A stretch of DNA of 64,000 nt from Ostreococcus lucimarinus (taxonomy: Eukaryota), in the NCBI GenBank assembly GCA_000092065.1, contig CP000591.1, one strand, 5' to 3'. Below the pieces are notes generated by a model. The model worked only from the letters and a program-made list of their open reading frames with translations, had not been told where the DNA came from and ran no database searches. The translations under genes were made by a program, and so were the position numbers. Below, piece after piece: positions 35,868-51,157 of this stretch. Within the stretch, counting starts at the first letter, position 1. Every line of letters starts with the position of its first letter.

Positions 35868-35983
35868 TGACCCAGGCAGGAGTCGAACCCGCAACCTTCA
35901 GATAACTTCAACGGCGTCCTCGCGTTCGCGAGGAGACTCTCGAATCACTGGAGTCTGACGCACTACCATTGTGCTACCGAGCC
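35868..35983 (-). tRNA. tRNA-Trp (anticodon CCA) with 44-nt intron at the canonical 37/38 position
   Basis: Minus-strand cloverleaf: GGCTCGG-TA-GCAC-AATGGTA-GTGC-G-TCAGA-CTCCAG[44-nt intron]A-TCTGA-AGGTT-GCGGG-TTCGACT-CCTGC-CTGGGTC-A. A-box and B-box present. The oligo-T pol III terminator is on the minus strand; on the plus strand it appears as AAAAAAA around 35836-35842. Confidence 0.8.
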
Positions 35984-39068: not shown

Positions 39069-40433
39069 TCACTTCGGGCCGTCGCCCTCGCCCAGGACGG
39101 TCTTTTGGCGCTTCGCGTCGCGCGCGTCGCCGACGCTGAAGACGTCGTCGAAGGTTTCGAGCGCGTTTAAAAACGCCTGGTCCATGTTGAAGTACTTGTA
39201 ACTCGCGAGGCGGCCGACGAAGACGACGCCGGGCTCTTTCGCCGCCATGTCGCGGTACTTTTCGTATAACTCGCGGTTGGCGGGGTTGGGAACGGGGTAA
39301 TACGGCTCGCCGTGATCGCACGAGTACTCTTTGAAGACGACGGTGCCCGCGTGCTCGCGCGCCTCGCGCGGCTGGTTGGGCTTGTGCTTGTACTCGACGA
39401 CGCGCGTGTGCTCGACTTCCGGACCGGGGTAGTTGAGCTGTAAGCACGGTTGGTAGAAGAATGGTTTCGTTTTGTCCTCGCCCTCGTGGTACTCTTCGAA
39501 GAAACGCAGACTTCGGTACTCGAGCTTGGGCAAACCTTGAGACGCGTACCACGCGTCGATGGGGCCGGTGAAGACGACGAACTTTCGCGCCTTGCTTCTC
39601 AACATGTCTTTGTGCTCAAAAAAGTCGGTGTTCAGGCGCACGGTGATGTTCGGATCGCCCATGATCATATTTTCGAAAATCCTCGTGTACCCGTGCTTCG
39701 GCAACGCTTGGTGCGGATCGCTAAAGTACCTATCGTCGACGTCTTCGCGCACGGGTATCCTCGCCAAGACGCTCGCGTCCAGCTCCTCGGGGTACTTATC
39801 CCACTGCTTCTTCGTGTAATGCTTAAATATCGCCTCGTACAGCTCCGCCCCCGCCCTCGTCAGCGCGCTCTCTTCTCCGTTCTTCGGATTCTCGTTCACC
39901 GACCGTCTGGCGTCCAACCATCTTCGCGCGTCCTCGTCCGTCTTCAAATCCGCCTCGGGAAACAGCGCGTTGATCGTGTCCCTGTTCGGCGGCACCCCCA
40001 CGATTCGGTACCGCCTCCCCCCGTGTTCGTACTCCCCGTCCTCGCGCTCGATCGCCGCCTTCACTCGGTGTTCGTACGGCGTCCACTCGCTGAATCGATT
40101 CACGTATTCCCACACCCGCGCGTGCTTCGTGTGAAACAAGTGCACGCCGTACTGCGACACCCTGAACCCCTTCGCGTTCACGAAGTCGTAGCAGTTCCCG
40201 CCGACGTGATCGCGCTTGTCCACGAGAAGCGTCTTCATCCCGAGCTCTCGCGACGCGCGGCTCGCGAAGACGCAGCCCGAGATGCCGGCGCCGACGACGA
40301 CGAGGTCGAACTCGCGGTCGCGAATCCGCGCGTCGCTCGCGACGCCGGCGAACCAGCTCGGATCGTGGTCGTTGCCGCGACGGACGGAGACGTCCACGCC
40401 CGCCCACTCGTCGGCGTCGGCGCGCGCGCGCAT
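39069..40433 (-). CDS. GLF: UDP-galactopyranose mutase (eukaryotic-type UGM/Glf, galactofuranose biosynthesis)
   Basis: FAD motif FDLVVVGAGISGCVFA...LLVDKRDHVGGNCYD and conserved eukaryotic UGM blocks (GYTRIFENMI, FTGPIDAWY, YRSLRFF, NYPGPEVEHTRVVEYKH, YYPVPNPANRELYEKY). ATG at 40433. The track ORF extends upstream through an antisense (ATT)n tract. Confidence 0.85.
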   Translation of the reverse strand: MRARADADEWAGVDVSVRRGNDHDPSWFAGVASDARIRDREFDLVVVGAGISGCVFASRASRELGMKTLLVDKRDHVGGNCYDFVNAKGFRVSQYGVHLFHTKHARVWEYVNRFSEWTPYEHRVKAAIEREDGEYEHGGRRYRIVGVPPNRDTINALFPEADLKTDEDARRWLDARRSVNENPKNGEESALTRAGAELYEAIFKHYTKKQWDKYPEELDASVLARIPVREDVDDRYFSDPHQALPKHGYTRIFENMIMGDPNITVRLNTDFFEHKDMLRSKARKFVVFTGPIDAWYASQGLPKLEYRSLRFFEEYHEGEDKTKPFFYQPCLQLNYPGPEVEHTRVVEYKHKPNQPREAREHAGTVVFKEYSCDHGEPYYPVPNPANRELYEKYRDMAAKEPGVVFVGRLASYKYFNMDQAFLNALETFDDVFSVGDARDAKRQKTVLGEGDGPK

Positions 40434-40648: not shown

Positions 40649-40661
40649 ATGGGCGCCGCGC

Positions 40662-40723
<62 letters not shown>

Positions 40724-41467
40724 CCGCGCGACGCCGCGCGCGCGTCGTCGTCGCCGCCGGACGACGACGCGCCGACGCTCGCGCGCGCGCGCGAGGACGA
40801 CGCGACGCTGCGAACGAGCGAACCGTTGTTGACGCCGCGCGTGGCGCGCGCGCTGCGAGCGCGCGTCGAGCCGAGGGCGGGCGCGGTGACGTGGACGCGC
40901 GCGTTCGATTCGCGCGCGTGCGGATTGGCGAGTCTTCGTCGCGTCGTCGAGCGGTGCGCGGGCGTCGGACGCGCGCTCGTGCTCGTGCAACCCGAGGCGG
41001 CGGACGAGGCCGAGGCCGAGGACGAGGACGAGGCGTACTACGTCGCGCACGTCTCACCGGGTTTCCAAGCGAAGCCTCGGCACGATTTCCACGGCGACGA
41101 CGCGTGCAAGACGTTTCGCGTCGACGGAAAACGCGGCGTCGTCGTCGACACGTCCGGGGTCTCCGTCGCGCCGCTGTATTGCGCGTACGGCTACTCCCGA
41201 CACGGCGACGTCGTCAACGGGTTCGGGATGTTCGGTAAGATCGGGCGCCACGCCTTATTCGTGGACGCCGCCCTGGAAAACGCGCACGCGGACTTCGGCG
41301 CGCGTCGCTTCTCCGTGCGTCGCGTCGAAGTCTGGGCGCTTGAGGCGCGCGCGCCCGGAATCGACGCCGGCGCTTCGCCGCGCGCGGCGACGCGCGATCG
41401 AGCGACGATGGCGCAGTTTACGTCATCCGCGATCGCCCGCGACGTCCTCGACGCCACGACCGGCTGA
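40649..41467 (+). CDS. Hypothetical protein with N-terminal (SSP)8 repeat; its last 293 bp form the start of the 945-bp repeat R
   Basis: ATG at 40649 followed by (CCGTCGTCG)n encoding PSSPSSPSS.... C-terminal region ...RRFSVRRVEVWALEARAPG.... The ORF is continuous across the left boundary of repeat copy A (41175). Unknown family. Confidence 0.4.
40661..40726. repeat. 9-bp microsatellite (CCGTCGTCG)x7, coding (SSP)n on + and read as (ATT)n in the antisense UGM track ORF
   Basis: Directly visible tandem 9-mer. Confidence 0.85.
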
Positions 41468-41480
41468 CATCAAGACCGCG

Positions 41481-41655
41481 ACGGAACGTCGAGGAAAGAT
41501 CTCGTCGACGCGCTGTTTCGCGAGTGCGGCGGACCAGAAGGTGTGGGAGGCGCTGACGGATACGCGCGGCGTACGAGGCGACGTTCGCGGCGATTGAGGA
41601 CGCGCGTCGCGCGAGATAGATGATAGATTGATACTAGATAGATCTGATGCAGCTC
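41481..41655 (+). pseudogene. Pseudo-copy of the 3' end (last about 45 codons plus about 40 bp of 3' UTR) of the ENY2-like gene at 50492..50875, embedded in repeat R copy A
   Basis: CGTCGAGGAAAGATCTCGTCGACGCGCTGTTTC...GTGTGGGAGGCGCTGACGGATACGCG...GCGTCGCGCGAGATAGAT...AGATCTGATG matches 50705-50920, with an 18-bp deletion between GCGGAC repeats and a few substitutions. Out of context and not in an ORF with a start. Confidence 0.6.
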
Positions 41656-41663
41656 CTAGGCAG

Positions 41664-41684
41664 TCTCCTACGCGGTAGGAGACC
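41664..41684. other. Perfect 9-bp inverted repeat with 3-nt loop (GTCTCCTAC-GCG-GTAGGAGAC) hairpin
   Basis: Located exactly where homology to the 50.7-kb locus ends inside repeat R. Duplicated at 44101-44121. Confidence 0.7.
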
Positions 41685-41806
41685 TTGTTGTAACATACGA
41701 TGTACGACGGATCCAAAAAGTGCGAGCACGTCACCGTCGACGACCCGTCCTCGAGCGCGCGAGCGCGACGCGCCGTTTTCAGTGACAAAAAAGAATGGCA
41801 ACTTTG

Positions 41807-41993
41807 TTACCTCACCGGGATTCGAACCCGAGTCTGTTCGTGGAAGCGCGTGGCGTGTCCGTCAGTGTCGCGTTCACAATTTTTGGTGTCAACGTGTCCG
41901 TTCGCGTGTTCACGTGCGATGGGCGCGAAGATGCGTAGAATACGTACCTCTAGGGTGAAAGCCTAGCGTGATAACCATCTACACTATGAAGTA
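41807..41993 (-). tRNA. tRNA-like pol III gene (cloverleaf with anticodon UUC, Glu-like; Val-like D-arm) interrupted by a 115-nt insertion in the variable loop; within repeat R copy A
   Basis: Minus strand: TACTTCA-TA-GTGT-AGATGGTTA-TCAC-G-CTAGG-CTTTCAC-CCTAG-AG[GTACGT...115 nt...CAG]AC-TCGGG-TTCGAAT-CCCGG-TGAGGTA-A. All four stems pair; U33 and A37 are present. A-box TAGTGTAGATGG and B-box GGTTCGAATCC. T6 terminator 15 nt downstream (plus-strand A-run 41787-41792). The insert at 41834-41948 has GTACGT, ACTGAC and CAG. Confidence 0.45.
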
Positions 41994-42119
41994 CCGCTCG
42001 ACCCCGCAAGGGGCCGCAGCGATCGATCTCTCCGATGTTTCGGAGTTCACGGGATGTACTCATGTTTCAGCTCGTCCACACTTTCGTGTGGCTAGATAGA
42101 GATGTGTGCGGCTTGACAC

Positions 42120-42170
42120 GACGACGAGGTCGAACTCGCGGTCGCGAATCCGCGCGTCGCTCGCGACGCG
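42120..42170. pseudogene. 51-bp fragment copied from the 5' coding region of the UGM gene (40299-40349)
   Basis: GACGACGAGGTCGAACTCGCGGTCGCGAATCCGCGCGTCGCTCGCGACGC is identical except at the last base to the UGM segment encoding ..IRDREFDLVVV.. Sits immediately after repeat copy A. Confidence 0.6.
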
Positions 42171-42359
42171 GCGTCGTCGCGCGTCGTCGCTCGCGGGTGC
42201 GCGCGCGGCGCCATCACCGCGCGCCGCGAAGTGACGACGCCCGCGCCGCTCAGGAAAAATTTATATATCGCCCCTTTAGAGAGTACCTACACACATGACG
42301 AGTCATGAACCAAGGATGCGGGGAGATCTCGCCGTCGGCGCCACTCGTCGCCGCATACG

Positions 42360-43376
42360 ATGACCGATTCAGTCGCGCACGCCTCACCGACGTGGAGAAC
42401 GTACTCATTAGACCCGTCGCTGCAACCGGACTGGATGAACGGCACGGCGGAGGTAGAGGCGGTCAAAACAGCGGAGGATGAACTCGAGCGCTCGTACAAG
42501 AACAAGCCATTCTTCAAGAACACAAGCTACGAGGCATTCGCCAGAAAACGAGGCGAGTATGATAAACCGACGCCCGACGGCCTCGAGGAGTTCAAGCGTC
42601 TCCTACGGGCGAGTTATCTTCGCACCGTAGAGCGCATCGATGAAGATACCCAAGTTCTGGAAGCCCAGCTACAAGACGAGAATATCTCTGAAACGCGACG
42701 GTCGGTTATCCCGCAGCACATCGAGGACACTCGTGCGAAATTAAAAGAGCAAGACAATTCATTGAACGCGCTGTGCGCCGATGTGGATGCGGTTATCGCA
42801 GATTTGAAAGGCTTGCCCGATAAAATTGCCGACATAAAAGAACACGCCTCTGAACAACTTCAGCAACACAAAAGAAAAAGAACCAGTATATCTTTGGAAC
42901 GCAACCTCGAGGAGCTGAGCGATGCGCTGCGCAGCTACGAGGCGAAAAAAGAACAGGAGAGGCTCACAATTACCGATTATCGTGGGAAATATGGGTCATG
43001 TCCATCCCAGTATGTTCGCCAGACCGCCTGGGCACGCAGACCTTCTGGTCGTGAAGAAATTAGCTTCATTGTTCATCCTGTGGGTGTCATTGGCTGCGAT
43101 GGCAGTAACCTGAGCGTTGATGGACGTGTTTCGATTGATGGTTATGGTGAGTTTAACGTACCAAAATGGCAGCCTGAATGGGGACCTGAGAAGCAAATGT
43201 GTGCGTGCGAATGCTTCCAAGAGTGGTACAAAGTCGACGCCCAAGACCTTCTTTACAGCGCGCTTCGTGGCGTAGAGGGCGCGCTAAAGGCGCTCAGTGG
43301 TTCGGGAGATGACACGTCTTCGCTTCGACGGCGCTTGGGCGATGCCAATTTGGACGAAGCAAGCACGGGGAGTTAA
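42360..43376 (+). CDS. Orphan 338-aa ORF with atypical (lower-GC) codon usage, central coiled-coil-like region, Cys/Trp-rich C-terminal part
   Basis: ATG at 42360, uninterrupted 1017 nt in a region where lower GC makes chance ORFs of this length unlikely. No recognisable domain. Confidence 0.5.
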   Translation: MTDSVAHASPTWRTYSLDPSLQPDWMNGTAEVEAVKTAEDELERSYKNKPFFKNTSYEAFARKRGEYDKPTPDGLEEFKRLLRASYLRTVERIDEDTQVLEAQLQDENISETRRSVIPQHIEDTRAKLKEQDNSLNALCADVDAVIADLKGLPDKIADIKEHASEQLQQHKRKRTSISLERNLEELSDALRSYEAKKEQERLTITDYRGKYGSCPSQYVRQTAWARRPSGREEISFIVHPVGVIGCDGSNLSVDGRVSIDGYGEFNVPKWQPEWGPEKQMCACECFQEWYKVDAQDLLYSALRGVEGALKALSGSGDDTSSLRRRLGDANLDEASTGS

Positions 43377-43410
43377 TATATGTGGACGTATATTTTGTTG
43401 TCCACGAATG

Positions 43411-43437
<27 letters not shown>

Positions 43438-43447
<10 letters not shown>

Positions 43448-43611
43448 CGCCTCCAGTCTCGACACAGTATCACTGAGTTCACTGCGAAGTTCGTCGATTT
43501 GCTGATCTCTCGAGGCAACGGCGGCCTCTAAATCGGCGATTTGAGCGTCGTGCTCGACGATTCTTTCGTGCAGCTCCTGGTTTGACTTGACGAGCACAGG
43601 AATGATTTGAG
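43438..43611 (-). pseudogene. 5'-truncated minus-strand ORF remnant (coiled-coil-like ...ELHERIVEHDAQIADLEAAVASRDQQIDELRSELSDTVSRLEAVESG*) cut off by the boundary of repeat copy B
   Basis: Open frame ends with TAG at 43438-43440 (plus-strand CTA) and runs without a start into the R boundary at 43611/43612. Low-GC composition like the adjacent ORF. Confidence 0.35.
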
Positions 43612-44556
43612 TGTATTGCGCGTACGGCTACTCCCGACACGGCGACGTCGTCAACGGGTTCGGGATGTTCGGTAAGATCGGGCGCCACGCCTTATTCGTG
43701 GACGCCGCCCTGGAAAACGCGCACGCGGACTTCGGCGCGCGTCGCTTCTCCGTGCGTCGCGTCGAAGTCTGGGCGCTTGAGGCGCGCGCGCCCGGAATCG
43801 ACGCCGGCGCTTCGCCGCGCGCGGCGACGCGCGATCGAGCGACGATGGCGCAGTTTACGTCATCCGCGATCGCCCGCGACGTCCTCGACGCCACGACCGG
43901 CTGACATCAAGACCGCGACGGAACGTCGAGGAAAGATCTCGTCGACGCGCTGTTTCGCGAGTGCGGCGGACCAGAAGGTGTGGGAGGCGCTGACGGATAC
44001 GCGCGGCGTACGAGGCGACGTTCGCGGCGATTGAGGACGCGCGTCGCGCGAGATAGATGATAGATTGATACTAGATAGATCTGATGCAGCTCCTAGGCAG
44101 TCTCCTACGCGGTAGGAGACCTTGTTGTAACATACGATGTACGACGGATCCAAAAAGTGCGAGCACGTCACCGTCGACGACCCGTCCTCGAGCGCGCGAG
44201 CGCGACGCGCCGTTTTCAGTGACAAAAAAGAATGGCAACTTTGTTACCTCACCGGGATTCGAACCCGAGTCTGTTCGTGGAAGCGCGTGGCGTGTCCGTC
44301 AGTGTCGCGTTCACAATTTTTGGTGTCAACGTGTCCGTTCGCGTGTTCACGTGCGATGGGCGCGAAGATGCGTAGAATACGTACCTCTAGGGTGAAAGCC
44401 TAGCGTGATAACCATCTACACTATGAAGTACCGCTCGACCCCGCAAGGGGCCGCAGCGATCGATCTCTCCGATGTTTCGGAGTTCACGGGATGTACTCAT
44501 GTTTCAGCTCGTCCACACTTTCGTGTGGCTAGATAGAGATGTGTGCGGCTTGACAC
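43612..44556. repeat. 945-bp direct repeat R, copy B (duplicate)
   Basis: See copy A. Ends 144 bp upstream of the USP39 start codon. Confidence 0.9.
44244..44430 (-). tRNA. Second copy of the tRNA-like gene with 115-nt insertion (in repeat R copy B)
   Basis: Identical to 41807-41993 shifted by 2437 bp. Confidence 0.45.
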
Positions 44557-44700
44557 CGCACATCTGATGAATGACTGTGCGCTAAACTTTTTCACCCAGA
44601 AATCGCGTCGACGGACGCGCGAATGTTACGGTCGGGCGTGACGTGTTTTCGCACGCCGCGCGCCGCGCGTCGTCGCGTTCGTCGCATTCCGCACTTCGCG

Positions 44701-46101
44701 ATGCCGCCGCGAAAGCGCGCGCGCGAGGCTTCGGGCGACCCGGTCGAAACAGAGGAGGGTTCAGCGCGCGCTCGGGATTCGACCGAACCGCCGTCGACCA
44801 CCGCGCCGTCGGCGCCGTGCCCGTACCTGGACACGGTGAACCTCGCGAACCTGGATTTTGACTTTGAGAAGCGGTGCGCGGTGTCGCTGTCGCCCGTGCA
44901 CGTGTACGCGTGCTTGGTCTGCGGCAAGTACTTCGCGGGACGAGGAAAGAAGACGCACGCGTACGCGCACGCGCTGGAGTGCGGACATCACGTGTTCATG
45001 CGCCTGGCCGACGGCGCGGCGTGGTGCCTGCCGGATGGGTACGAGGTGGTGGACGAAGGGACGACGCTGTCGAGGATTCGAGACGTGCTCGCGCCGACGT
45101 ACGCGAAAAAGTACGTGGAGGAAGAGATCGAGGGCGCGCGACCGATGTGGCGGCGCGCGCTGGACGGCACGGAGTTTCTCGTCGGCGTCGTCGGATTGAA
45201 CGCGATTTGGAGCAAACGCGACGACGGCGTGAGCGCGGTGCTGCAATCGCTGAACAGAGTGGCGCCGCTGCGGCGCGCGCTGTTGCTCGACGACGCGAGG
45301 GAACGCGAGGACGTCTATCGCGCCTTGGCGGACATCACGAAGAAGATTTGGAACGCGCGAAATTTTAAAGGTCACTCGAGCCCGCACGAGTTCATGCAAG
45401 CGGTTCGAAATCGATCGAAAGACGCGTTCGGCGCGGAGACGGGGAACCACGACGCCGCGCAGTTCTTGCGTTGGTTGCTCAACGAATTGATTCGCGACGA
45501 AAAGAAACGCGGCGAAAAGCGATCCGTCATTCAGTCGTGTTTCCAGGGAGAAGTGGAAATCATCGACGATTCGTCCGCGTCGCGCGCGTCGCCGTTCCTC
45601 ATGCTCTCGATGGACCTCCCGAACGCGCCGCTGTTTCAAGACGTCATGGAGAAGAACATCATCCCGCAAGTCTCCCTCGAGCGCGCGCTGCTGAAGAAAT
45701 TCGACGGCGTCACCGCGGACCCCAAGACGCGGCGCAGGTTCAAGATCACCAAGCTCCCAAACTACTTGATCGTGAATTATTCGCGCTTCACCAAGAACAA
45801 CTTCTTCGTCGAAAAGAACCCGACCATCGTGACGTTTCCGACGCGGGGGCTGAACCTCGCCGATCACATCCCGGTGCCGAGAGGGGACGAAAATTCGGCG
45901 ACGTACGATTTGATCGCCAACATCGTGCACGACGGCGCGCCCGACGACGGGTCGTATCGCGCCATGGTGTACCACGCGCCGGATAAAAATTGGTACGAGA
46001 CGCAGGATTTGCGCGTCGCCGAGGTGTTGCCGCAACAAGTCAACCTCACGGAGACGTACGTGCAGATTTACGAGCGTCGAGACAAGCGACGAGACGCGTA
46101 G
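44701..46101 (+). CDS. USP39: USP39/Sad1 (U4/U6.U5 tri-snRNP-associated protein 2; zinc-finger UBP plus inactive UCH domain)
   Basis: CPYLDTVNLANLDFDFEKRCAVSLSPVHVYACLVCGKYFAGRGKKTHAYAHALECGHHVFMRL matches the USP39 ZnF-UBP block. UCH-like domain follows. ATG at 44701. Confidence 0.85.
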   Translation: MPPRKRAREASGDPVETEEGSARARDSTEPPSTTAPSAPCPYLDTVNLANLDFDFEKRCAVSLSPVHVYACLVCGKYFAGRGKKTHAYAHALECGHHVFMRLADGAAWCLPDGYEVVDEGTTLSRIRDVLAPTYAKKYVEEEIEGARPMWRRALDGTEFLVGVVGLNAIWSKRDDGVSAVLQSLNRVAPLRRALLLDDAREREDVYRALADITKKIWNARNFKGHSSPHEFMQAVRNRSKDAFGAETGNHDAAQFLRWLLNELIRDEKKRGEKRSVIQSCFQGEVEIIDDSSASRASPFLMLSMDLPNAPLFQDVMEKNIIPQVSLERALLKKFDGVTADPKTRRRFKITKLPNYLIVNYSRFTKNNFFVEKNPTIVTFPTRGLNLADHIPVPRGDENSATYDLIANIVHDGAPDDGSYRAMVYHAPDKNWYETQDLRVAEVLPQQVNLTETYVQIYERRDKRRDA

Positions 46102-50491: not shown

Positions 50492-50875
50492 ATGCCTCGC
50501 CCCACCCCCGCGCCGCCGCCGCCGCCGGCGGCGCGCGACGTCGACGTCGAGCGCGACGCGCTCACCGCGATGCGCAAAGACGGCACGCTCGACGCCCTGC
50601 GCGCGCGCGCGGTCGAGCGCGTTCGCGCGGACCCAGAGATGAAAACCTTCACGGAATTCGCGGCGCGCGCGTCGCAGACGCTGCGCGACCCGCGAGCGAG
50701 GCGCGCGTCGAGGAAAGATCTCGTCGACGCGCTGTTTCACGAGTGCGGCGGACAGATTTTGAAGCAGGCGGACCAGAAGGTGTGGGAGGCGCTGACGGAT
50801 ACGCGCGACGAACTCGGCCGCGCGGCGTACGAGGCGACGTTCGCGGCGATGGAGGACGCGCGTCGCGCGAGATAG
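50492..50875 (+). CDS. Small (127-aa) ENY2/Sus1-like protein (tentative); source locus of the gene fragment copied into repeat R
   Basis: ATG at 50492. Pattern ..KDGTLDALRARAVERV.. and ..KDLVDALFHECGGQILKQADQKVWEAL.. loosely follows ENY2 helices. The last about 45 codons and 3' UTR recur at 41481-41655 and 43918-44092. Confidence 0.45.
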   Translation: MPRPTPAPPPPPAARDVDVERDALTAMRKDGTLDALRARAVERVRADPEMKTFTEFAARASQTLRDPRARRASRKDLVDALFHECGGQILKQADQKVWEALTDTRDELGRAAYEATFAAMEDARRAR

Positions 50876-51157
50876 ATACCGATAGATAATAGATTGATAA
50901 TACATAGATCTGATGTAGCTGATGCCGCCGCCGTCGCGTCGGACGGATCGCCTCGGTCGCCTTCGGTTCGCTTCTCGGCGGCGGCCGCCGACGCGGACGC
51001 CGCCGCGCGTCGCGGTCGTCATGCGCGCGGTTGTGCGGCGACGATTTATTTTACGCCGCGCGACGGGCGAGCGACGCCGGCGAATCGAGCGACGCTGAAT
51101 GCCCGTACGCTGGAATCGCGCGCGAACGCTGACGCGACGATTCGTCCGAGTGGGTGG

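Follow-up and report, generated by a model that had tools for sequence, protein, structure and literature searches.

A probably young, copy-number-variable tandem duplication around a low-GC gene on a standard chromosome of Ostreococcus lucimarinus

How two identical copies of one chromosomal segment came to enclose a low-GC gene is the question raised by a locus in the middle of a standard chromosome of about 0.6 Mb in Ostreococcus lucimarinus CCE9901, a member of Mamiellales as the initial annotation had assumed, which was analysed here within a window of 64,000 nucleotides (the whole stretch considered, from contig CP000591.1). The initial annotation had described a recent, compositionally atypical insertion bracketed by a duplicated native segment, and this description is supported, with both locally templated snippets and microhomology present. 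The repeating unit measures 2,437 bp and comprises a native 945-bp segment and a 1,492-bp patchwork insert. The feature is probably a single allele of a tandem duplication that is young, varies in copy number and lies on a standard chromosome; it would have arisen by microhomology-mediated repair or template switching and would subsequently have been reshaped by unequal recombination.

The repeated segment and its contents

The repeat, its contents and its native flanks are arranged as follows.

40649..41467, plus strand: host gene G, an ORF of 272 aa, weakly TLDc-like; its last 293 coding bases lie inside copy A
41175..42119, unstranded: repeat copy A (R-A), the native unit; exact match to 43612-44556; single copy between gene G and USP39 in empty alleles
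41487..41654, plus strand: 3'-end copy of a 127-aa gene (source gene 50492-50875), old and degenerate, found again at 43924-44091 in copy B
41807..41993, minus strand: tRNA-Glu(UUC) gene of copy A; its variable-loop region is interrupted by an intervening sequence of 115 nt
43611-43904: dead 97-codon fragment of gene G, inside the copy B region
43612..44556, unstranded: repeat copy B (R-B), the duplicate; TGTA shared at the junction with the interior; holds the dead gene G fragment and the second tRNA-Glu gene
44244..44430, minus strand: second tRNA-Glu(UUC) gene, copy B (Rfam)
44557..46101, plus strand: USP39-like gene (zf-UBP and UCH; Pfam) plus leader, the native right flank

The two direct repeats, 41175-42119 and 43612-44556, are as identical as had been claimed, with 0 mismatches over 945 bp at an offset of 2437, and the identity ends abruptly on both sides, the flanks being just 22% and 37% identical; an exact identity of this length with such sharp edges is not a product of chance. 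The first 293 bp of copy A do form the in-frame 3' end of the gene starting at 40649, gene G, whose match to the Pfam TLD family (E=5.8e-4, residues 56-231) lies under the curated cut-off. Across 19 natural copies this coding part hardly varies: 1 of its 293 sites is variable, as against 37 in the next 339 bp. The view that copy A is the native one is supported by the empty alleles described below, in which gene G runs directly into just one 945-bp unit. Within the repeat, the pseudo-copy that had been traced to a gene at a distance of 9 kb was also recovered: the stretch at 41487-41654 shows about 97% identity to the gene at 50492-50875 in the aligned blocks and is interrupted by three deletions of 20, 17 and 10 nt. 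Because the empty alleles carry this fragment too, it is older than the duplication. On the right flank, a natural breakpoint recurs at 44667-44675 (contigs L001 and L053).

A tRNA-Glu(UUC) gene, overlooked by the initial annotation, is present in both copies. It matches the full model (1-71) of Rfam RF00005 with 41.5 bits, compared with a gathering score of 29; ARAGORN found no tRNA in this region. In the 19 natural copies none of the 72 exon positions is variable, as against 6 of 115 in the intervening sequence, a putative intron that is 115 nt long and sits at a non-canonical position.

The patchwork interior and its inverted repeat

The interior has the lower GC content previously ascribed to it, at 0.544 for 42120-43611 compared with 0.604 for the repeat and 0.626 for the window, and the lowest 300-bp value, 0.48, is found at 42600-42899. 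It can be divided base by base.

42118..42173, plus strand: UGM snippet, 57 bp, a copy in direct orientation of UGM coding sequence 40294-40350; overlaps the repeat end by 2 bp (AC)
42174..42216, unstranded: GC-rich filler, 43 bp, between the UGM snippet and segment T
42217..42253, unstranded: segment T, 37 bp, opening with 12 bp that match the USP39 leader exactly (44656-44667)
42253..42311, plus strand: stub, 59 bp, of a long terminal inverted repeat (dispersed; putative Mutator-like type), identical to positions 1-59 of the 136-bp repeat
42312..43514, plus strand: low-GC gene module, 1.2 kb, conserved, with sharp edges and many genomic contexts
42360..43376, plus strand: intact 338-aa ORF (XP_001420301.1) in the low-GC module
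43433..43611, minus strand: C-terminal 58 codons of a 102-aa ORF, a convergent coiled-coil ORF cut by the copy B junction

The UGM coding fragment reported at the start of the interior is an exact match over 52 bp (42118-42169 to 40294-40345), reaching 57 bp with one indel. For the 43-bp filler, neither the window nor any of the fetched loci offered a source. The antisense ORF remnant at the copy B boundary is 5'-truncated as described, its complete 102-aa form being found in related contigs (at 11074-11382 of L001). The junctions share microhomologies of 2-4 bp (AC, CC and TGTA), of which CC marks a deletion of 79 bp at the stub, comprising the inner 77 bp of the inverted repeat and the first bases of the module. 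Homology to the module begins and stops at its edges in L012, L032-L047 and L011, and the reverse complement of segment T abuts the opposite end of the gene cassette in other natural alleles.

The insert in the window is a truncated copy of a low-GC cassette, which in wild relatives is joined to the long Mutator-like terminal inverted repeat at several other sites. At least five outer flanks of the cassette (segment T, the S-region, the RAI1 context, K and the 573-aa context) end at the repeat terminus or within 15 bp of it. Beside the gene module only one repeat arm was ever seen, of which the window holds only 59 bp. Elsewhere the 136-bp repeat forms a 221-bp MITE with arms of 82 and 127 bp (L026/L029), and in L026 one copy faces inward to a 144-aa ORF and a 693-aa transposase gene with MULE (PF10551) and Peptidase_C48 (PF02902) domains, the other end of this element lying outside the fetched DNA. 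The arm structure and the adjacency to this one, partly sequenced transposase gene suggest the Mutator-type assignment, and no target-site duplication of 9-11 bp was found, whether beside the MITE (flanks GTGCGTG / TGAGCTC) or around the window copy. That the inverted repeat meets segment T exactly at its terminus hints at a joint made by a transposase rather than by pure repair. One cassette site lies in a low-GC, transposase-rich region, probably the mating-type region on chromosome 2 in the opposite mating type.

The 338-codon ORF at 42360-43376 is intact, as reported, and is genuinely coding, with purifying selection acting weakly on it (dS 0.33 and dN/dS 0.45 against the O. tauri copy). 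Its protein combines a long helical hairpin with a conserved C-terminal region containing Cys and has no Pfam domain; the family is tiny, with only 17 clusters in 1.84 billion representatives, and its members have so far been named solely from Ostreococcus. The GC3 of the gene is 0.54-0.59 versus 0.80-0.88 in neighbouring genes, and a value of about 0.55 is common to the copies in several Ostreococcus lineages. The initial annotation had named ordinary syntenic orthologs of normal composition as a finding that would speak against it, and this is borne out by half. Homologues do exist in related genomes, including that of O. tauri, but they are non-syntenic and low in GC everywhere, so that the reading as an ordinary gene fails.

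Natural alleles and the origin of the array

Three allele classes, carrying 0, one or at least two extra units, were read from independent metagenome contigs, which can be chimeric across shared repeats. In the empty class the TLDc-like gene is followed by a single 945-bp unit and USP39; the suggestion that related strains might show this arrangement without the 2.4-kb unit was borne out in seven independent contigs (L021, L022, L023, L057, L059, L065 and L066; 92-99.6% identity), including contigs of 550 kb and 620 kb. One extra unit is present in the reference and in the 608-kb contig L058, which also has a secondary deletion of 454 bp, and at least two are present in L050 and L051. The two gene copies of L050 differ at 10 of 1293 nt, and the array is thus not an assembler loop. 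With the 945-bp segment written as R and the insert as X, the order in L004 is R-X-R-X. The units are arranged head to tail, share one novel TGTA junction in all alleles and vary in number, as in a tandem segmental duplication.

All array alleles have one 945-bp haplotype in common and the empty alleles carry another, which makes the empty state ancestral rather than a pop-out. The cassette-to-repeat junction is also present on a second 945-bp haplotype and with other upstream contexts (L008, L048 and copy 1 of L050), and the filler-T junction occurs with a complete cassette in the opposite orientation as well (L003 and L006). As read from these contigs, the locus has a history of several layered events rather than a single one.

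Of the mechanisms put forward initially, replication template switching or break repair fits best with the AC, CC and TGTA microhomologies at the breakpoints and the locally templated snippets. The chromosome would have broken immediately past the 945-bp segment, at a point 126 bp upstream of the tRNA gene, and the break would have been mended by microhomology-mediated end joining or replicative template switching, in the course of which 57 bp of UGM sequence (from 1.8 kb upstream), 12 bp of the USP39 leader and then the cassette would have been copied. The chromosome would have been re-entered at the start of the 945-bp segment via the TGTA microhomology, and this re-entry would have duplicated the segment. 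Unequal homologous recombination between the 945-bp copies would later have let the array grow and shrink, giving the 0, 1 or at least 2 units observed in nature, and may also keep the copies identical. Precedents in Ostreococcus include a 4-nt microhomology at translocation junctions and 'accordion' tandem arrays of about 2 kb (PMC13390643), as well as genes that have moved between autosomes and the mating-type region (PMC8557840).

An unlikely, though the least implausible, alternative is a Campbell-type integration, in which a 2,437-bp eccDNA circle (the 945-bp segment plus the cassette, closed at TGTA) recombined with the chromosomal 945-bp segment to give R-X-R, and arrays followed by repeated integration or unequal exchange. 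The R-X-R structure ending in the native USP39 is the exact product of a single-crossover integration, and the variable unit number, including R-X-R-X in L004, also agrees with it. However, template switching yields the same structure, no circle or circle-specific evidence was found, and a precursor with R, filler, T and cassette in direct order was not seen outside the array alleles.

Canonical transposition, in which a non-autonomous Mutator element of Pack-MULE-like kind would have been brought in by its transposase and shortened afterwards, has a slightly smaller chance of being correct. In at least four contexts the long inverted repeat stops precisely against a different flank; it also forms a MITE and adjoins a MULE transposase gene, and MULE terminal inverted repeats can carry promoters while MULEs capture host genes (PMC3310237, PMC6446971). 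Yet the window retains the 59-bp stub of one repeat only, lacking the second repeat and a target-site duplication, the other end of the insert is a microhomology junction to host DNA, and the flanking duplication is 945 bp rather than 9-11 bp.

Acquisition from a prasinovirus or another virus, for which the lower GC and the orphan ORF had spoken, is very improbable and is not supported: a pattern-limited scan of IMG/VR gave no confirmed match, among the homologues there is none with a viral name or Pfam domain, the flanking DNA examined contains cellular genes or agrees with O. lucimarinus sequence, and the same low GC3 recurs in several Ostreococcus lineages.

A non-autonomous element of LTR type (TRIM/LARD), with the 945-bp repeats as long terminal repeats, is hardly credible. 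The direct repeats do start with TG, as had been pointed out, but the exact repeat ends in ...GACAC, and the proposed terminal CA is obtained only if the last shared base is dropped, in which case a 4-bp CCGC stands on both flanks. Both a tRNA gene and the conserved 3'-terminal coding part of a host gene lie within the repeat, which is ordinary single-copy intergenic DNA in the seven empty alleles and occurs in arrays of 0, 1 or at least 2 units, while the cassette is present elsewhere without it. No RT, PBS, PPT or Pfam domain was found in the interior, which opens with GACGACGAGG, the UGM copy and not a primer-binding site.

Finally, false duplication of the repeat by the assembler, suggested by the perfect identity of the copies, is just as hard to credit, as it appears to be contradicted by independent contigs: both novel junctions recur in many assemblies that differ in samples and assemblers, the reference-type junctions in L005, L007, L049, L052 and the 608-kb L058, and the interior-to-copy-B junction also in L004, L007, L008 and L048-L056. 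On present sequence evidence, the window feature is a real, young structural variant and not an assembly error, a virus or an LTR element.

Related systems and the traffic of the 338-aa gene

The preferred template-switch origin resembles FoSTeS/MMBIR and polymerase-theta end joining in the tandem duplication with foreign junction DNA, the 2-4-bp microhomologies and the snippets taken from less than 2 kb away from the break, but differs in that the mechanism is deduced for the window from its sequence, one or more of the junctions lie exactly at a transposon end and the events are layered. The accordion region on the small outlier chromosome of O. mediterraneus and O. tauri (PMC13390643) is similar in genus, in units of about 2 kb and in strain-variable copy number, and the authors of that work suspected that one unit harbours a non-autonomous transposable element. 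The likeness drawn here is one of description. In contrast, the window array, with 0 to 2 or more units, occupies a mid-chromosome position on a standard chromosome rich in GC, has a tRNA gene as its anchor and includes a conserved gene that is demonstrably coding.

As in Pack-MULEs and other Mutator-like elements (PMC5861414, PMC6446971), a long terminal inverted repeat abuts a captured gene in many contexts and fragments of other host loci are attached, such as the piece of gene G, R and USP39 leader in L001. Unlike these elements, a whole gene is involved here, with a single repeat seen beside it and no target-site duplication, and the window copy does not have the form of a transposition product. 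With the translocations between autosomes and the mating-type region (PMC8557840) the locus shares the feature that one gene occupies a low-GC region rich in transposons in some wild genomes and a standard chromosome in the MT- reference, whereas the window event, with 100% identity over 1.3 kb, is of recent date, is polymorphic and can be followed to the base pair. The donor region would belong to the MT+ haplotype.

The consequences of the duplication are a doubled tRNA-Glu gene, a dead 97-codon gene fragment left behind and an intact orphan gene placed at an autosomal site. We tentatively consider, as a possibility that is rather doubtful at present, that the 338-aa gene is a mobile passenger of a Mutator-like element, hopping between the mating-type/outlier region and standard chromosomes and recently crossing species boundaries within Ostreococcus. 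The evidence given for a recent crossing is the dS of 0.13-0.33 together with the GC3 of about 0.55 in every host, set against a background that is saturated. If this is true, the window locus would be an actively breathing array that co-amplifies the 338-aa gene with a tRNA-Glu gene, and it would allow gene traffic driven by transposons to be followed in a natural setting, in a eukaryote that has almost none of them.

Alleles of the duplication in natural populations

Self-comparison of the window bore out the direct repeat that the initial annotation had described: the 945 bp of 41175–42119 recur at 43612–44556 at an offset of 2437 bp with no mismatches, and identity is lost sharply beyond both edges. 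The interior (42120–43611) has the lower GC content noted earlier (0.544 versus 0.626 for the whole window, with a minimum per 300 bp of 0.48); its 338-codon ORF is unbroken, and the truncated antisense ORF, the copy of UGM sequence (52 bp exact, or 57 bp if one indel is allowed) and the degenerate copy of another gene's 3' end, from 9 kb away, are all genuine. The TG…CA ends assigned to the repeat need correction, as the unit actually ends in …GACAC and CA is obtained only by dropping the last shared base. The main features are as follows.

40649–41467 (+), gene G, TLDc-like
41175–42119, 945-bp unit, copy A (native)
42312–43514, gene module
42360–43376 (+), orphan gene encoding a 338-aa protein
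43612–44556, 945-bp unit, copy B (duplicate)
44557–46101 (+), USP39 including its leader

The 338-aa protein is an exact match to XP_001420301.1 of Ostreococcus lucimarinus CCE9901, on a record of 593 542 bp; an exact look-up of the 492-aa USP39 ORF found no record. The locus lies 256–335 kb from an end in three chromosome-scale contigs (550–620 kb), and no telomere repeats occur within the window; it is located mid-chromosome on a GC-rich standard chromosome and is not subtelomeric.

In seven independent contigs (L021, L022, L023, L057, L059, L065 and L066), which are 92–99.6% identical to the window, position 42119 is joined directly to 44557, giving the order UGM, gene G, one 945-bp unit and USP39; these are the relatives without the extra unit for which the initial annotation had proposed to look. 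The junctions of the reference arrangement, with one extra unit of 2437 bp, recur in other samples (L005, L007, L049, L052 and L058), and two contigs (L050 and L051) each contain at least two units ending in USP39. The two gene copies within L050 differ at 10 of 1293 positions, which excludes an assembler loop, and since the alleles recur in independent contigs an assembly error is excluded as well. The natural alleles with a single native unit likewise exclude an element with long terminal repeats. All array alleles share one haplotype of the 945-bp unit and the empty alleles have another, with 3 bp more at 41834 and one substitution; the array is therefore a young, derived haplotype and the empty state is ancestral. 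The 608-kb contig L058 has the reference arrangement except for a deletion of 454 bp (43043–43496) that truncates the ORF, from which it follows that the 338-aa gene is dispensable in that strain. In this natural allele with one extra unit, L058 positions 13489/13490 correspond to window positions 43042/43497, and the C-terminal third of the ORF is missing. The structural variant is real and young, its anatomy is well resolved and its general type is already known.

Anatomy of the unit and the interior

The initial 293 bp of the unit form the in-frame end of gene G, which encodes 272 aa and matches TLDc weakly, and among 19 natural copies only one site is variable in these 293 bp versus 37 in the next 339 bp. 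A PDB sequence search with gene G gave no match, and the homologue search, which was swamped by the low-complexity N-terminus, gave two. At this N-terminus, a perfect 9-bp tandem repeat (CGCCGTCGT, about eight times, 40659–40735) encodes (SSP)n. The other features of the unit and those of the interior, the latter in order, are listed below.

41487–41654, copy of the 3' end (last ~215 bp, 50706–50920) of a 127-aa gene at 50492–50875
41807–41993 and 44244–44430 (−), tRNA-Glu(UUC) gene, full-length in Rfam, one per copy
UGM snippet, 57 bp, direct orientation, source 1.8 kb upstream, sharing AC with the repeat end
Filler, 43 bp, following the UGM snippet
37-bp segment, the first 12 bp of which equal 44656–44667 in the USP39 leader
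42253–42311, transposon-end stub, 59 bp, matching the outer end of a 136-bp sequence at 100% identity
42312–43514, gene module, 1.2 kb, after a 79-bp deletion with CC microhomology
Right end of the interior, 97 bp beyond the module, cut at the microhomology TGTA, shared with the beginning of the 945-bp unit

The copy from the 127-aa gene is intergenic, following gene G, and consists of nearly identical blocks separated by deletions of 20, 17 and 10 nt. As it is present in alleles without the duplication it is older than the duplication, and its presence in all alleles indicates that duplicated DNA had been accepted earlier at the same spot. The tRNA gene scores 41.5 bits in Rfam (gathering score 29) and was not called by ARAGORN; its anticodon loop, CUUUCAC, identifies it as Glu(UUC). 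Its 115-nt insertion lies in the variable-loop region rather than at the canonical position 37/38 and, in the RNA sense, starts with GGUACGU and ends with ACAG; among natural copies, none of the 72 exon positions and six of the 115 insertion positions are variable. For O. tauri, a recent review reports 45 tRNA genes, with long introns and permuted genes among them (PMC13578239), so that a duplicated tRNA gene is not trivial there. A link between this gene and the use of GAA codons by the orphan gene was rejected, as there is no skew. In a further tRNA gene (35868–35983, − strand; Rfam 52.7 bits), a 48-nt intron occupies the canonical position in the anticodon loop.

For the 43-bp filler and a 176-bp flank ('K'), no source was found among the sequences compared. 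The 79-bp gap upstream of the ORF was considered as an intron and rejected, since its ends are GT…CC and not GT…AG.

The cassette, the low-GC region and the orphan gene

The 136-bp sequence occurs at 100% identity and in both orientations in contigs of a low-GC region (L001 1–9814; L025–L031; GC 0.42–0.49) carrying SMP_LBD, MCM and XPG genes and two transposase genes (DDE_Tnp_4 and MULE). Marine metagenomes contain this region in great abundance (650 index blocks), and the neighbourhood on one flank of SMP_LBD exists in at least three alternative versions, whose breakpoints fall at the 136-bp repeat. A 221-bp MITE (L026 9504–9724; L029 9502–9722) has inverted arms of 82 and 127 bp with 12 bp between them; the arms are 100% identical to the stub at 42253–42311, no target-site duplication was found, and the MITE occupies precisely the flank that in L001 and L002 holds a single arm followed by the gene module. 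A further copy of the 136-bp sequence is oriented inward, towards a 144-aa ORF and a 693-aa gene (MULE, Peptidase_C48). At least five different outer flanks adjoin the repeat-plus-gene unit, ending at the repeat terminus or within 15 bp of it; a second repeat arm and a target-site duplication were sought around the gene and neither was found, and comparison of the two ends of the full cassette (the module with its transposon end) gave no terminal inverted repeats. With varied flanks, a MITE and a MULE neighbour on the one hand and neither duplication nor second arm on the other, the unit is likely, but unproven, to be Mutator-like and Pack-MULE-like in nature.

The named proteins most closely related to the SMP_LBD protein come from O. 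tauri RCC1115 (64%) and O. mediterraneus (60%); both reference strains are MT+, whereas CCE9901 is MT−, and gene translocations between autosomes and the mating-type region are known (PMC8557840). As these nearest relatives are MT+ genomes, the low-GC region is probably the chromosome-2 mating-type region of O. lucimarinus in its MT+ haplotype. Synteny of upstream genes between L001 and L012 was rejected because the proteins are unrelated.

The family of the 338-aa protein comprises 49 proteins among 5.8 billion searched, all from marine metagenomes, O. lucimarinus or O. tauri, with 59 invariant alignment positions; a profile search of 1.84 billion representatives gave 17 clusters and no annotated relative. 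No match was found in Pfam, which also gave nothing useful for the distant relatives P0057–P0060, and the viral origin that had been considered was discarded on a pattern-limited IMG/VR scan without a match. In the AlphaFold2 model (24 homologues; mean pLDDT 65.8), only a long helical hairpin is confident and the conserved C-terminal region, with the motif HPxGxxGC…PxW..WGxEKxxCxC, is not; a Foldseek search of the PDB with this model gave nothing below E = 1. GC3 is 0.54–0.59 in every lineage versus 0.80–0.88 in neighbouring host genes.

The gene module has sharp edges in many genomic contexts, and over 1300 bp the copy in the window shows 100% identity to that of the low-GC region (L001). The O. 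tauri homologue (L011 2666–3661; 81% amino-acid and 86% nucleotide identity) adjoins an ankyrin-repeat gene 2.6 kb from a (CCCTAAA)n telomere of chromosome 9 (L011 1–100) and is not syntenic with the O. lucimarinus copy. Between these two copies dS is 0.33 and dN/dS is 0.45 (dS is 0.13 to another lineage); synonymous divergence between the two species is otherwise probably near saturation. Several lineages, as well as L046 and L050, retain an upstream region that has telomere-like TAGGGTTTAG motifs and is apparently ancestral. In L012 (7929–7945) and in L032, L033, L037, L040, L046 and L050, a conserved element immediately upstream of the module ends in TAGGGTTTAGCGGCCTC and contains motifs resembling telomere repeats or the telo-box in G-strand orientation; an interstitial telomeric remnant is one possible reading and a promoter element another.

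Formation of the locus and its significance

Taking the observed allele series, junction sequences, local origin of two snippets and transposon-end stub together, we suggest that the chromosome broke downstream of the 945-bp unit and that repair proceeded through template switching or microhomology-mediated joining, which would have joined in the local snippets and a copy of the cassette; re-entry at the start of the 945-bp unit would then have duplicated that unit, and unequal recombination may later have altered the unit number. Microhomology of 4 nt at translocation junctions and accordion arrays of ~2 kb have precedent in Ostreococcus (PMC13390643). Integration of a circle is a possible origin of the arrangement, as is a transposase-made joint at the repeat terminus. 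Further arrangements were found: the complete cassette in opposite orientation against the same filler (L003 and L006), the cassette between inverted 945-bp starts (L008 and L009), and a cassette–unit–USP39 block with a different left neighbourhood (the 61-kb contig L048). In L001, a piece consisting of gene G, the unit and 111 bp of the USP39 leader is joined to the cassette in the low-GC region. The leader contains a recurrent natural breakpoint at 44667–44675, with L001 joining 44667 to the cassette and L053 joining 44675 to unrelated GC-rich DNA. Rearrangements recur at this locus, which is a hotspot for them; one parsimonious sequence of steps linking L001, L003/L006, L008, L048, L050 and the reference was sought, and none was obtained.

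Few free-living eukaryotes have genomes as compact and as poor in transposons as those of Ostreococcus and, to our knowledge, accounts of structural dynamism in these genomes have dealt almost exclusively with the two outlier chromosomes. In contrast, this locus represents a rearrangement of a standard chromosome that is resolved to the base pair and still segregating, the alleles in the sea having zero, one and at least two units. Its local interest lies in the duplicated tRNA gene with a noncanonical intervening sequence, in the cassette linked to a Mutator-like end and in an orphan gene that shifts between contexts. The transposon-end cassette links a low-GC, transposase-rich region to an autosome, and the locus opens tests of how genes pass from outlier or mating-type regions to autosomes and back, of whether Mutator-like elements are still active in Ostreococcus and of whether the copy number of a tRNA gene varies naturally where the tRNA set is minimal. 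The gene family, which is uncharacterized, fast-moving and so far named only from Ostreococcus, merits functional study.
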